Positions 57,730-64,000 of a stretch of 64,000 bases of DNA are shown in pieces (the first letter of the stretch is position 1; every line of letters begins with the position of its first letter). A program made the translations under genes and the position numbers. Source of the stretch: Candidatus Aldehydirespirator sp. (lineage in GTDB: Bacteria > Actinomycetota > Acidimicrobiia > Acidimicrobiales > Aldehydirespiratoraceae); contig OZ244822.1 of assembly GCA_965220345.1 (NCBI GenBank), positions 1,222,669 to 1,286,668 on the forward strand, given 5' to 3'. The notes below the pieces were generated by a model. The model ran no database searches. It saw nothing but the letters and a program-made list of their open reading frames with translations, and was not told the DNA's origin.

Positions 57730-60700
57730 TTAGCCGTCATTGAAACCCATTGTGCAAACAATGCTGGGTTCGGCATCGGCACCGTCGGCTGAGGGCGGCA
57801 TACAAAGACGGTTGTCGTTGTGAAGGTCTACCACTAGGGCGGCGAGGTCATCCACGCTTCTTTCGCGCAAAGCTCTTGACAGGAGCTGAGTGGCCGAGTC
57901 ATAAAGCGGGCGTTCGTTCATGGTGTCGTGAGCCGCTGACAGATCAGCCTTTGTGAACAGCAGATTGTCGGCCAGGTTGTTCATCTGCTCGTGAAGCCTG
58001 CGCCAAACTTTGCCTCTCACGCCTTGAAGAGCACCAGTGGCGCGCCCAGATGGGGTTCGTAGCGGTCCGCCCAGTGCTGCTGCGGTCAGGTCGTGATGAT
58101 CGGCTAGGCGTGGCGCACAAGCAGTGTCGGGTTGGCATTCGGCGAGACGCAACGCTTCTTGAGGAGTGACACGCCGTGCTTGTCCGCTGAGTTCCACGAA
58201 CGCAAAAGCGTCGGAACCAGCCACGCTTTGCGTGTGGACTAGCACACCGCTGCTGGCCTTGTTGCCGTCTCCGAGATCGCTGCTGTCCCCGAGCCTGCTG
58301 TCCCTGAGGTCACTGTCCCCGAGACTTCTGCTGGCAGCTTTGTTGTCGGCGGTGACGTGTTTGGTGGAATAGACGATGTTGGGCAGCGAAGCCACTTGCT
58401 TGGCAATGTCGGGATGGTTGCGTTCGGCGTGTCGCCAGATCTCATATGCCATCGACACTGGATCAACTTCCTCGGCTGCTGTCGCGTCTGGCCCGTAGGC
58501 GGAATGCTCGTCGTAGACACCAGAGATGATCTGACGCTCGCTCGGATCGCCGAGAAAGGTCTCATCTGAGCCAAGCAGTCGAGCGTTGTCACCGAGACGC
58601 TGGCGGATACGACCCCGCAGGTTGATCTCATCTTCGATTGATTCTGCTGGCAGCAGTGTGTAGATCAGCACCTCGGGCGAGTTCTGTCCGATACGGTCAA
58701 CGCGTCCGGCTCGCTGCACAAGCTTGACAATGGCCCACGGCAGGTCATAGTTGACAATGATGTGAGCGTCTTGGAGGTTCTGACCCTCCGACAGCACATC
58801 GGTGGATACCAGCACTCGTATTTCGTCGGTGGTCGTGGTGCTGTCAGCGGGTGTCTCGCCAGGGCCGCTGCCGTTACTGGCTATGCCAGAGTCGCTGCCT
58901 GTAGTGGCGATGTTGTTGGATTTGGGCGAGAATCGCCGTGCCAGCGCTGTCGGGTTTTCGGAGTCGCCAGTTACCACGCTCACAGCTTCGACCCCTCGAC
59001 GCAACAACTCTTCTCTCACGTAATGGGCAGTGTCGGCGGCTTCGGTGAAGATCAGCACCTTGGCATCGGGATAACGGTCGGTGAGCAGCCTCTCTAACGC
59101 GTTGATCTTGCCGTCACGCTGAGAATCCCAGGCACCGAAACGCTCAAGCATTTCTTCGATGACTTCGGCATCGTGGCGCAGGTCTTGCGCTAAACCGTCA
59201 GCGAACATTTGGTGAGGTGCCCAGCGGATCGCTTTGGGGTTCTTAGCTCGCAGCTTGTCATAAGCGCTGGCTGCGGTGTCTTCAGCCGAATCAAAAAAGC
59301 CTGTGGCATCGCCGTGTTCGCTGCTGTCTTCAGGGTCGGTGTCCACTTCGGCGGCCCATAACGCATTGTCAACTGAGCCGATAGGCACAGGCAGGTGATT
59401 ATCAAGAGCATGCACAACCACCAGGTTGCGCAGTCGGTGACGACGCAGTGTCGCAGTGAACGCAGGCCCCGAAGACGACAAACGTTTGAACATGGTCACT
59501 CTGGTGAAGCCCATCAGGTTGCCTCGCGAGGCTTTCTCTAGATCGTCTACCAGTCGGCGTTCGGCTGGGTCAGCGGGTTCGAAGTCGGTGCAGATGTAAT
59601 GGCCGAGCCGGTAGCGGGGCAAAAGCATGTCGCGGATCGCGTCAAGCGTGTCGTCTGAAGCCATCGCATGGGCTGGGTCGTCTTCGTCAAGCGCCCGTTC
59701 GATGGGTTCAGCGATCCGTTTAGGGAAGTAGAAGCGTTTACCGGTGCCGAACTCCAGATAGCGGCGGCCTTGCTCGTCTACATCGGCGTAGTTGTCTTCC
59801 ACGAAGCGGCGGGTCCGGCGAACCAGATACTGCGACATAAGCGCTTGCCAGTCACCGAGATGCTCCGACCGTTTGAACGCACCCAGCGTGGAGGTTCGCC
59901 CATCGCAGGCCAACGCAAATTCTGCTTCGCCAGCTTCGGCTATAGCCCGTTCGGGGCGCAACTGCAGGTCGGTGTCGGATCGGATAAACAAAGACAATTG
60001 CGAAGCGAGATCACCAAGCGCCTTGTTATAAGGTGTGGCGGTCAACAGCAGCACCCGCGAGTCGTTGTCGGCGATATAGCTATGTAGCACGCTGTGGTCG
60101 CGGCGCTTATCGCTTCTGAGGTTGTGTGCCTCATCAATGATTACTAGCCGGTAGCGGCGAGCATCAGGCAAAGTTTGATGCACCATCGATAGAGACTCGA
60201 CTTTGCCGCGCACTTCGTATTCGTGCAGATACGACTCCCACATTTCGGTGAGGTTTTTGGGGCACACCACCAGCGTCTCGAAGCCCTGATCTTCTTGCAG
60301 TAGACGTGCCACGGCTGTGCCCACAAGAGTCTTGCCGAGCCCGACCACATCACCGATCATGGCACCGCCTTTGCTCATGATGATGCGCGCCGCGATCTTC
60401 ACTGCTGCGGCCTGAAAGTCCAGCAACTTGTCTTTCATTGAGGCAGGTAGGCCGTATTCGATAAGCCCTTCGCGGGCTTCCTTGGAGAGATGCCAAGCCA
60501 TCTTCAGATACACCAAAAACGGGTCAAGCTGATCTTTCGATGCCCACGACTCGTTCAGCGTTTCGGCTAGTTCGGGCATCGCATCCACAGTGAACGGATC
60601 GTTCCAGCGGTCCTCGAACCAGCGGGACAGCTTGTCGGTGGCATCGCCGTCCACCACGTCCACGTTCAGCTCGCCTTGTTCACGTAGCCCCGCCACTGTC

Positions 60701-61188
60701 ATATTCGATGACCCCACATAACCGACGCGAGGCGCGGCGCTGTCATCACGATGACACAAATAAAGCTTGGCGTGAAGCCGGTGCGCAGTGTGCAGGCGAA
60801 CCTGCACGTCACCGTCGTTGATTTGGCGTAGCAGAGCCCGCAGCGTTGTCTCATCACCTTCGCTGGGCAGGCCGATCTGTAGTTGATCACGGTATTCCGA
60901 GATTGTCTCGGTTTTGAGACGGGCAGCTGTGCGGTTGTCGATTAGTTCGCTTTGGCGCATCCGAGTCAGTCGACGCATTTCTTCTCGGGGTGTTTCATGG
61001 ATGCCGACTAGCACACGAGCCTTTGGTGTTCCAGGTCGCTTTGGTAGGGCATCCACTGCGTCGGTCAGCAGCTTCCAGCCCCGCAAATTGAAATAGCCGA
61101 TGCCCGCGTCAAGCCGATACGACGTACTTAGCGTTCGCAGCAGTTCGGTTTCGGTGTCGCGCTCAATGTTGTCAAGGATCAGTGGCAT
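57730..61188 (-). CDS. PLD-nuclease / SNF2-helicase fusion protein
   Basis: The true start MPLILDNIERD at 61188 follows an AGGAGG at 61195-61200. PLD HKD motif: HAKLYLC...GSSNMT. SNF2 motifs: DVVGLGKT (motif I), LVIIDEAHNLR (motif II). Helicase C: STDVLSEGQNLQD...QRAGRVDRIGQ. The C-terminal ~330 aa are unassigned. Confidence 0.85.
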   Translation of the reverse strand: MPLILDNIERDTETELLRTLSTSYRLDAGIGYFNLRGWKLLTDAVDALPKRPGTPKARVLVGIHETPREEMRRLTRMRQSELIDNRTAARLKTETISEYRDQLQIGLPSEGDETTLRALLRQINDGDVQVRLHTAHRLHAKLYLCHRDDSAAPRVGYVGSSNMTVAGLREQGELNVDVVDGDATDKLSRWFEDRWNDPFTVDAMPELAETLNESWASKDQLDPFLVYLKMAWHLSKEAREGLIEYGLPASMKDKLLDFQAAAVKIAARIIMSKGGAMIGDVVGLGKTLVGTAVARLLQEDQGFETLVVCPKNLTEMWESYLHEYEVRGKVESLSMVHQTLPDARRYRLVIIDEAHNLRSDKRRDHSVLHSYIADNDSRVLLLTATPYNKALGDLASQLSLFIRSDTDLQLRPERAIAEAGEAEFALACDGRTSTLGAFKRSEHLGDWQALMSQYLVRRTRRFVEDNYADVDEQGRRYLEFGTGKRFYFPKRIAEPIERALDEDDPAHAMASDDTLDAIRDMLLPRYRLGHYICTDFEPADPAERRLVDDLEKASRGNLMGFTRVTMFKRLSSSGPAFTATLRRHRLRNLVVVHALDNHLPVPIGSVDNALWAAEVDTDPEDSSEHGDATGFFDSAEDTAASAYDKLRAKNPKAIRWAPHQMFADGLAQDLRHDAEVIEEMLERFGAWDSQRDGKINALERLLTDRYPDAKVLIFTEAADTAHYVREELLRRGVEAVSVVTGDSENPTALARRFSPKSNNIATTGSDSGIASNGSGPGETPADSTTTTDEIRVLVSTDVLSEGQNLQDAHIIVNYDLPWAIVKLVQRAGRVDRIGQNSPEVLIYTLLPAESIEDEINLRGRIRQRLGDNARLLGSDETFLGDPSERQIISGVYDEHSAYGPDATAAEEVDPVSMAYEIWRHAERNHPDIAKQVASLPNIVYSTKHVTADNKAASRSLGDSDLRDSRLGDSSDLGDGNKASSGVLVHTQSVAGSDAFAFVELSGQARRVTPQEALRLAECQPDTACAPRLADHHDLTAAALGGPLRTPSGRATGALQGVRGKVWRRLHEQMNNLADNLLFTKADLSAAHDTMNERPLYDSATQLLSRALRERSVDDLAALVVDLHNDNRLCMPPSADGADAEPSIVCTMGFNDG

Positions 61189-61226
61189 GTTCGTCCTCCT
61201 TGTCGTTCTACTCGCAGTTGGCAGCG

Positions 61227-63701: not shown

Positions 63702-63738
63702 CAGGTCGTTTGAGGCTGGATCGGTAGCCTTCATCGCT

Positions 63739-64000
63739 CTAGTCTTTGTTGCCGAAGACCATGCGGTCACGCAGGTTGCCAGCTGCCTCGAATGCATCCT
63801 CAATGCCCCAGGCTTTCGCTAGCAGCCAGTCGGCCTTGTCAGTCAGATGACGCAGTTTGAGCATGTTGTAGCGGCCTACTTTGACACCTGCGTTCGTTTG
63901 CCATGCGAGATGTTTGGGCATCTCATTCTGGAGGGTTCTTGACAGCTCCAGTAAAATCACGAGTTCCATGTCACCCGGTACGCGCTGAGCAAGCCGTTCG
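63739..64000 (-). CDS. 3' end of a gene truncated by the window edge (function unassigned)
   Basis: The reading frame stays open to position 64000 (…ERLAQRVPGDMELVILLELSR…MVFGNKD*). I cannot assign the terminal helices with confidence. Confidence 0.45.
   Translation of the reverse strand, partial: ERLAQRVPGDMELVILLELSRTLQNEMPKHLAWQTNAGVKVGRYNMLKLRHLTDKADWLLAKAWGIEDAFEAAGNLRDRMVFGNKD

Follow-up and report, generated by a model that had tools for sequence, protein, structure and literature searches.

What kind of system is encoded at positions 57730-64000 of the stretch of DNA analysed here, 64 kb from Candidatus Aldehydirespirator sp. (contig OZ244822.1; hereafter the window), where four elements lie side by side: a gene in which a PLD-family HKD nuclease domain is fused to a SNF2 helicase (PLD-SNF2), an array of short direct repeats, an AAA_14/DUF4143 ATPase gene and a DUF433 gene? 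A first-pass annotation had read helicase-nuclease, ATPase-nuclease, putative regulator and array as one composite defence locus. We ran Pfam and PADLOC profiles on the proteins of this region and compared it with homologous loci, the nearest of which belong to metagenome-assembled genomes of Acidimicrobiia; two of these loci, L001 (96.5% identical to the window at the DNA level) and L002 (85-88%), reach past the window end. All features of that annotation were present at their coordinates, with four corrections to details, and the domain calls for the helicase, the ATPase and the DUF433 protein were confirmed. The region is, however, a defence island that arose by nested insertion ('embedding') in three layers instead of a single system. 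We consider it probable that the locus consists of a restriction-modification (RM)-like pair with two nested inserts, and that the array, which belongs to the third layer, has been expanded from a conserved cis-element of PDC-S01, the family of the AAA_14/DUF4143 protein. The link between this array and its gene is the main new result of our analysis and is absent from the literature searched.

The array is made up of 20 head-to-tail direct repeats of 23 bp (61227-61686; consensus nTGyTGTGCrAwAmCnGCATTGA in the orientation of the AAA gene, i.e. the plus strand). Its units follow each other without gaps and with zero indels across all 20; GTGC (unit positions 6-9) and CA (positions 18-19) are invariant in 20 of 20 units, the mean pairwise identity is 70%, and two unit types alternate in part, which gives rise to higher-order periods of 46 and 92 bp. 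The core pattern is matched 18 times, compared to 0.19 matches expected by chance, and is found nowhere else in the window. Downstream of the array lies the AAA_14/DUF4143 gene (61714-62943, plus strand; 409 amino acids), whose start we have corrected to the ATG at 61714 instead of the TTG at 61621. TATTAT, a -10-like TANNNT hexamer read from the sequence, is located at 61702-61707 on the same strand, 6 nt 5' of this ATG, which suggests a leaderless or near-leaderless transcript of the AAA gene. A scan for sigma-70 consensus promoters gave no matches; the signal that matters here is the TANNNT/leaderless pattern of actinobacteria.

Several other identities of the array were considered and rejected. 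It is not a CRISPR (clustered regularly interspaced short palindromic repeats) array, as its units are arranged head-to-tail without spacers and no cas genes are present. Nor is it a coding repeat, because 23 is not a multiple of three; the minus-strand open reading frames (ORFs) across the array are artefacts of the repeat. A transposon end was likewise dismissed, with no inverted or second repeat set downstream of the array. At the RNA level the array matches no known family in Rfam (E<=1), and a fold z-score of only -2.1 indicates no strong structure.

The first-pass annotation had treated the array as a component shared by the whole locus. Judged from sequence comparisons it is instead a cis-element of the AAA_14/DUF4143 gene, an expanded form of a promoter-proximal repeat set of PDC-S01. 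A metagenome scan yielded 61 loci with AAA homologues of 32-55% identity, 51 of which were used to analyse periodicity in the 195 bp before the start codon. Mean upstream self-identity peaked at lag 23 (0.363), with 0.325 at lag 46, compared to 0.25-0.28 at other lags and to 0.27 at lag 23 in control regions (far upstream, intragenic and downstream), and lag 23 was the top lag in 28 of these 51 loci. At least three units, usually three to five, were present in 31 loci, where they end 0-38 bp from the start codon, and when 30 arrays are placed in register, a common oriented core, GYGnrAAAnnGGTAnT, emerges, with some 7 variable bases after it. At least 18 of 28 homologous loci have a TANNNT hexamer, the signature of leaderless actinobacterial promoters, 6-7 nt 5' of the start codon, and this hexamer is often formed from the last unit. 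Period, orientation and promoter position of the repeats are conserved even where the gene sits elsewhere: at L013 a 31%-identical AAA homologue at a different position, upstream of the methylase gene described below, is preceded by a strict array of 15 x 23 bp (4913-5257) with a sequence unlike that of the window, which ends 22 bp before the AAA ATG. We found no mention of a conserved 22-23-bp repeat array upstream of PDC-S01 genes in the literature searched.

The association of array and gene extends to plasmids and viral contigs. On plasmids, the homologues of Mycobacterium, Spartinivicinus and Sulfitobacter are preceded by 4 x 23 bp and that of Agrobacterium by 3 x 22 bp; upstream of homologues on viral contigs (27-31% identity) lag 22 or 44 was the top lag in 8 of 12 cases, and the units of proteobacterial and viral-contig homologues measure 22-23 bp. 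Array and gene are transferred together, the units are lineage-specific and their number varies: L154 carries the repeat family of the window with a 67%-identical AAA gene amid unrelated housekeeping genes, and L153 encodes two PDC-S01 paralogues (2025-3269, minus strand; 5001-6239, plus strand), 33% identical to each other and 1.7 kb apart, each of which bears its own, different 23-bp repeat set. L153 also contains a remnant of the PLD-SNF2 5' end beside the array of the second paralogue. At the gammaproteobacterial locus L044 a run of 26 G is located about 450 bp upstream of the AAA_14/DUF4143 gene, which may be an assembly artefact or a homopolymeric tract.

The protein encoded downstream of the array comprises an AAA_14 ATPase domain, a winged helix and a DUF4143 domain with a PD-(D/E)xK fold (Pfam E-values of 2e-15 for AAA_14 and 3e-27 for DUF4143). 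All of its residues (1-409) align to positions 8-419 of the 422 in the PADLOC profile PDLC04790 (PDC-S01; 5.2e-102), and it has the same ATPase plus PD-(D/E)xK architecture. The EVD...EIK motif pointed out earlier in its C-terminus is conserved as EVD...E(I/V)K, and its residues E338, D340, E354 and K356 are invariant or nearly so among homologues. The AlphaFold2 (AF2) model (pLDDT, short for predicted local distance difference test, 86.7; predicted template modelling score, pTM, 0.89) consists of an AAA+ domain, a helix-turn-helix/wing region and a restriction-endonuclease-like C-terminal domain with the conserved E-x-D ... E-x-K. Its Foldseek neighbours are Apaf-1, PABY2304, RuvB, Avs5, RFC, Orc1/Cdc6 and MuB, and also Can2. 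A capacity to bind DNA is suggested by the helix-turn-helix/wing region between the AAA and nuclease folds and by Orc1/Cdc6, RuvB and PABY2304 among the neighbours. A PDB sequence search gave no useful match for this protein, and exact-sequence database look-ups with the AAA and DUF433 proteins of the window gave no match. PDC-S01 was proposed as a defence candidate by 'guilt-by-embedding' (bioRxiv 10.1101/2024.01.29.577857). Among prokaryotic defence candidates PDC-S01 (COG1373) reportedly ranks fourth in frequency (PMC12988326), and its copies are reported to number tens of thousands. It is a candidate family with putative defence activity.

Direct repeats in front of a gene for a DNA-binding protein are well known from replication and partition elements. 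Iterons overlap the promoter of the gene encoding their own binding protein (P1 incC/repA), and centromere arrays such as R1 parC, bound by ParR, are arranged similarly; tandem direct repeats about two helical turns apart, overlap with a promoter and variable copy number are all shared with the PDC-S01 array. The array might therefore be an iteron- or centromere-like element of a selfish or mobile unit, and the AAA+ protein an initiator, segregation or homing/transposition protein and not an immune effector. This explanation draws on the layout itself, as iterons and ParR/parC classically have direct repeats with a 22-23-bp period that overlap a neighbouring gene's promoter, on Orc1/Cdc6 and MuB among the fold neighbours, on the insertion of array and gene as a single unit, on the presence of this unit on plasmids, in viral contigs and by insertion sequence (IS) elements, and on the negative phage-defence test of one homologue. 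However, a search downstream of the array revealed neither a second (inverted) repeat set nor any other end, target-site duplications and insertion borders could not be defined, the unit is present as a single copy within the window, and the protein matches no Rep, Par or transposase family. In place of the Rep or ParR/ParB protein that adjoins iterons and centromeres we find an AAA+ - winged helix - PD-(D/E)xK nuclease, and the PDC-S01 array loci are chromosomal as well as plasmid-borne, with no origin or partition function indicated. We thus regard an iteron- or centromere-like element as quite unlikely and retain the interpretation of the array as a cis-element of a PDC-S01 gene.

Divergently oriented to this gene, on the other side of the array, is the PLD-SNF2 gene (57730-61188, minus strand), which according to Pfam, PADLOC and its homologues encodes an HKD(PLD)-SNF2 translocase-nuclease of 1,152 amino acids. 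The longest ORF (57730-61269) would extend into the repeat array; however, the start is almost certainly Met28 at 61188, because homologues measure 1,100-1,152 amino acids and have the N-terminus MPxILDNI. A Shine-Dalgarno-like sequence, AAGGAGGA (61194-61201, minus strand), can be read 5 nt 5' of this ATG, and 38 bp separate the start codon from the first array unit. Pfam assigns PLDc_2/RE_NgoFVII to residues 145-222, SNF2-rel/DEAD/ResIII to 286-414 and Helicase_C to 814-861. A single HKD motif (H139-x-K141 ... G159-S-S-N162) is followed by the helicase motifs Walker A GLGKT287, DEAH at 352-355 and motif VI Q825-RAGRVDRIGQ, and H139, K141, G159-S-S-N162, GLGKT287, D352-E-x-H355 and motif VI are invariant alignment columns. 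The protein matches the PADLOC profile C3a139 'HKD+Snf2' (E 2e-43), its nearest PDB relative by sequence is RapA, and two homologues, 98% (P0001, 1,152 amino acids) and 86% identical, supplied its genomic context. For about 318 C-terminal amino acids Pfam gives no match, and a Foldseek search of PDB with the AF2 model of the C-terminal ~293 residues (pLDDT 76) returned none below E=0.1; the C-terminal ~300 amino acids are conserved among homologues. Full-length matches were found in many phyla with 40-79% identity in a genome scan that used a PLD-SNF2 alignment as query (80 loci). At L151 (1295-4662) the gene is broken into two ORFs.

Which gene, then, does this nuclease-helicase work with? 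The first-pass annotation had recognised no DISARM partner and had set the helicase beside the ATPase and the DUF433 protein. Only part of this holds: DrmA and DrmB were not found, but there is an adenine methylase partner, most of which would lie past the window end. In the relatives that cover the sequence beyond position 64000 (L001, L002, L150-L152), an Eco57I/PglX-type methyltransferase is the conserved partner of the helicase. The window retains the 3' end of this N6-adenine methyltransferase gene, i.e. the last ~87 codons and the stop (63739-64000, minus strand; the frame stays open off the window end), and a 76-amino-acid minus-strand ORF at 63739-63969 represents the C-terminal end of the gene as it leaves the window. 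Positions 63690-64000 (minus strand) align to the 3' end of a gene encoding about 605 amino acids of the Eco57I family in relatives, and the methylase 3' end in the window shows 83-89% nucleotide identity to those of L001 and L002. In the relatives this gene is preceded by one encoding about 471 amino acids, for which Pfam gives no convincing domain match. Both products match the same PADLOC profile, REase_MTase_IIG PDLC03628, at positions 10-361 (2e-82) and 489-890 (8e-76), respectively, and since they map to a single profile they are halves of one protein.

The association of this methylase with PLD-SNF2 is widespread. In a tblastn search of the 80 loci, which come from many phyla, both halves were placed beside PLD-SNF2 in 68 and one or both in 75; of the remaining five, three are contigs ending less than 450 bp past the PLD-SNF2 gene. 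The two halves form a single ORF of about 1,100 amino acids in 62 of 70 loci, and the split form, with two overlapping ORFs, is confined to eight Acidimicrobiia loci (L001, L002, L006, L007, L009, L010, L011 and L013). At L001 (5896-9224) the split is located at a PT-rich linker. The split form could represent a true two-subunit enzyme, programmed frameshifting or decay. The usual gene order is PLD-SNF2 followed by the methylase; in Acidimicrobiia the methylase comes first, and at L004-L006 its stop codon is 9 nt from the PLD-SNF2 start. A PDB sequence search with the methylase found no match. About 6 kb downstream of the PLD-SNF2/methylase pair of L027 (Dehalococcoidia) there is a CRISPR-like array (19293-23042) with a 61-bp period and the repeat GGTCTATCCCCGCGTGTGCGGGGGAAC.

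Comparison with known systems supports the earlier statement that this is not canonical DISARM. All NCBIfam equivalog scores of the window's protein are far below cutoff, with 125.5 bits against a DISARM DrmD cutoff of 610 for NF038317 and 85 against 950 for NF038318, and neither DrmA nor DrmB (DUF1998) is found among the called genes within flanks of up to 10 kb in L001 and L002 and up to 5 kb in L150-L152. In DISARM the PLD protein DrmC and the SNF2 protein DrmD are separate, whereas here PLD is fused to the helicase. The partner methylase does match the PADLOC DrmMI profile (1.4e-27), but PDLC03628 fits far better (8e-76). An HKD-endoDNase together with a Swi2/Snf2 helicase is described for 'Type-2 BREX-related (BR)' systems (PMC12839542), and an N-terminal HKD endoDNase fused to a Swi2/Snf2 helicase is present here according to Pfam and PADLOC. 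Both Type-2 BR systems (PMC12839542) and DISARM (DrmD/DrmC) have in common with our locus an N-terminal HKD domain fused or paired to a RapA-like SNF2 core and an N6-adenine methyltransferase partner. However, the Type-2 BR partners DUF499, DUF1156 and DUF3780 are missing from the neighbour Pfam lists of L001, L002 and L150-L152, and the partners in both systems differ from the one here, a single PglX/type-IIG-like methylase of the Eco57I family (PDLC03628).

Because the HKD-SNF2 protein is paired with an N6-adenine methyltransferase, an RM-like logic is expected, and by its sequence features the HKD-SNF2 and PglX/type-IIG-like methylase couple is an ATP-dependent RM-like pair with putative restriction activity. 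If it resembles type I, type III and BREX-related systems in its mechanism, its SNF2 motor would move along unmodified DNA, and cleavage would follow once two HKD domains dimerise. To our knowledge the two-gene module of HKD-SNF2 and PDLC03628 has no system name. In annotation, members of the HKD-SNF2 family should be considered along with their ~1,100-amino-acid methylase instead of being labelled orphan helicases or fragments of DISARM. This pair, with the methylase split into ~471 and ~605 amino acids in the lineage of the window, would be the first layer of the locus.

The second layer is represented by the DUF433 gene (63039-63701, plus strand), which encodes 220 amino acids (Pfam PF04255, 9e-11) with a weak MerR-like N-terminal region. 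DUF433 genes adjoin PLD-SNF2 in a few Acidimicrobiia loci only, and there always together with DUF5615: in L002, L003, L010, L011 and L150-L153 an overlapping DUF5615/PIN_10 gene invariably lies 3' of a DUF433 gene whose product has the same length as, and 66-89% identity to, that of the window. The absence of a toxin gene next to DUF433, stated correctly before, is accounted for by a deletion scar at 63690-63702: compared to L002 the window has lost about 383 bp (L002 6160-6542), which contain almost the entire DUF5615/PIN-like toxin gene. According to blastn the junctions are window ..63692 = L002 ..6543 and window 63690.. = L002 6159.., and tblastn did not find DUF5615 anywhere in the 64-kb window. 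DUF433-DUF5615 (PIN_10/Mut7-C-like) combinations are type II toxin-antitoxin pairs, of which the window retains the DUF433 half, while the adjoining toxin gene has been deleted. The DUF433 protein of the window is thus the orphaned antitoxin of such a pair, whose toxin gene this strain has deleted, and hence not a regulator of the neighbouring genes. The cassette would have been inserted between methylase and PLD-SNF2 in some Acidimicrobiia, with the toxin lost later in this strain.

A comparison of distances shows how the third layer was added. In L003, L010 and L011, which have only DUF433-DUF5615 at this position, the distance between DUF433 and PLD-SNF2 is 164-380 bp, compared to 1,850 bp in the window, and these 1,850 bp correspond to the array and the AAA gene. 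The AAA gene therefore arrived as an insert; nucleotide-level borders of the array and AAA unit are undefinable, as the flanks in L003, L010 and L011 are too diverged. In the clade of the window the PDC-S01 gene would have been inserted together with its own upstream array. The PDC-S01 class was defined by embedding, and the copy in the window is literally embedded within a multi-gene RM-like system. The inserts are also readily lost: in L001 the AAA gene (9262-9675) has an internal deletion, and both DUF433 and DUF5615 are gone. A few other loci among the 80, such as L013, have unrelated, independent insertions.

This history bears directly on the proposal that PLD-SNF2, array, AAA_14/DUF4143 and DUF433 together make up a novel type of defence system whose several components have co-evolved. 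The genes do adjoin, PLD-SNF2 and AAA diverge around the array, the same four-part layout recurs in L002 and L150-L152, and 8 of 82 loci have PDC-S01 homologues no more than 10 kb from PLD-SNF2. Yet all recurrences belong to one clade (AAA proteins 79-94% identical), which is also the only one in which AAA_14/DUF4143 adjoins PLD-SNF2, and the constant neighbour of PLD-SNF2 across phyla is the methylase. In addition, AAA, DUF433 or DUF5615 have been lost independently among close relatives, the AAA gene with its array is found alone in unrelated contexts, and DUF433 elsewhere is always paired with DUF5615. The orthologue neighbourhoods, and likewise the methylase gene that relatives have beyond position 64000, thus speak against helicase-nuclease, ATPase-nuclease, regulator and array as one system, which we consider highly improbable; of the proposed link to defence what stands is the looser notion of a defence island, here a layered one.

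Arrays also change quickly in size. Against 20 units in the window, about 11 are present in each of L001 and L002, and an identical protein (P0124) is associated with 12 units in one strain (L150 4663-5000) and 9 in another (L152 4732-5000), the two arrays differing by exactly one 69-bp block, i.e. three units. Unequal recombination would expand and contract the array in this way, here to 20 units. Arrays of at least 9 units were seen only where PDC-S01 adjoins the HKD-SNF2/methylase module, namely in the clade of the window (L001, L002, L150-L152) and in L013; because these are just two independent lineages, the restriction may be due to chance. The array takes up the divergent promoter region and hence probably influences PLD-SNF2 transcription as well; it would then govern a promoter severed from its operon by the insertions. 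One might go further and see in the array mainly a contingency promoter spacer which tunes or switches the PLD-SNF2 gene cut off from the methylase operon, with binding of the AAA protein secondary or absent. The mere 38 bp between PLD-SNF2 start and array, the separation of PLD-SNF2 from its operon, the whole-unit copy differences in near-identical strains (20, 11 and 11; 12 versus 9) and the confinement of long arrays to PDC-S01 genes abutting the RM-like module would all fit. This is, however, difficult to reconcile with the arrays of 3-5 units in many loci without PLD-SNF2 nearby and with L013, where the array lies upstream of AAA and apart from PLD-SNF2 with the methylase in between, and expanded arrays come from just two independent lineages of the sample. 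We therefore deem a contingency spacer unlikely as the main role of an array that we interpret as an expanded PDC-S01 cis-element.

Several observations weigh against the layered structure and the cis-element that we propose. The body of the methylase gene is outside the window, its presence being deduced from relatives with 84-96% identity, and the split methylase could be a decaying gene. About one third of the sampled loci are without a clear array, and some distant homologues (Thermus pTT27, Allochromatium, L056) have palindromes, short 13-bp repeats or other periods instead. One PDC-S01 homologue gave no protection against T4, T5 and T7 in one preprint. Finally, in a Mantel test repeat similarity correlated with winged-helix identity with a rho of 0.26 and with the nuclease domain about equally (0.24). 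Such a weak correlation, about the same for either domain, does not demonstrate that protein and site have co-evolved beyond shared descent, and binding of the units by the protein is a hypothesis. The repeats could then also be bound by an unrelated host regulator, or be the product of functionless replication slippage in a permissive intergenic region, for which the weak co-variation test and the putative nature of the tie between protein and site leave room. Against this, the repeats retain their period, orientation, shared 16-bp core and distance from the start codon in Actinomycetota as well as in Pseudomonadota, even where protein identity has dropped to 27-31%, and paralogues in one genome carry different units, which neither one regulator nor slippage readily explains. 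Both variants thus appear very unlikely to us compared with a cis-element that belongs to the PDC-S01 gene.

How might this cis-element work? The conserved PDC-S01 element comprises 3-5 direct repeats in one orientation with a period of 22-23 bp, the last unit overlapping the -10 of a putative leaderless promoter. The units are putative cognate sites for the winged helix of PDC-S01, and binding to them would result in autorepression and/or provide an assembly platform for an AAA+ oligomer; protein binding, regulation and any defence activity at the locus are in this sense putative. A more specific joint model, which we put forward tentatively and as rather doubtful in its entirety, is that PDC-S01 proteins are sequence-specific DNA-binding AAA+ nucleases with a private 22-23-bp unit in each lineage, and that each uses an array of its own over its own leaderless promoter as a platform. 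According to this model the proteins would assemble cooperatively on the array, with 23 bp corresponding to about 2.2 helical turns and protomers spiralling round the DNA; the array would allow the gene to regulate itself and would also hold or license the nuclease, and where a copy is embedded in an RM-like system, growth of its array to 9-20 units would link occupancy by PDC-S01 to transcription of the restriction helicase next to it.

The promoter repeat set is the first concrete handle on PDC-S01, as it provides a probable DNA recognition site for each protein and implies a probable autoregulatory circuit. It also offers a reason why PDC-S01 clones without their native upstream DNA might misbehave. 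The locus itself illustrates 'embedding' cleanly, two successive inserts having split a restriction operon, and it also shows fast gain and loss at the strain level, with the toxin deleted, the ATPase deleted and arrays shifting by whole units.

Two further features were noticed upstream of this region in the window. Between the LigD Prim-Pol gene and the redoxin gene flanking PLD-SNF2 lies an ORF of 439 amino acids (55534-56853, minus strand), whose near-identical counterpart in L001 has no Pfam match. At 53116-54256 (minus strand) three tandem paralogous genes encoding 118-151 amino acids reside on a 378-bp tandem DNA repeat present in 2.1 copies; two of their L001 counterparts have no Pfam match, and the other has a weak match to gag-asp_proteas (retropepsin-like).

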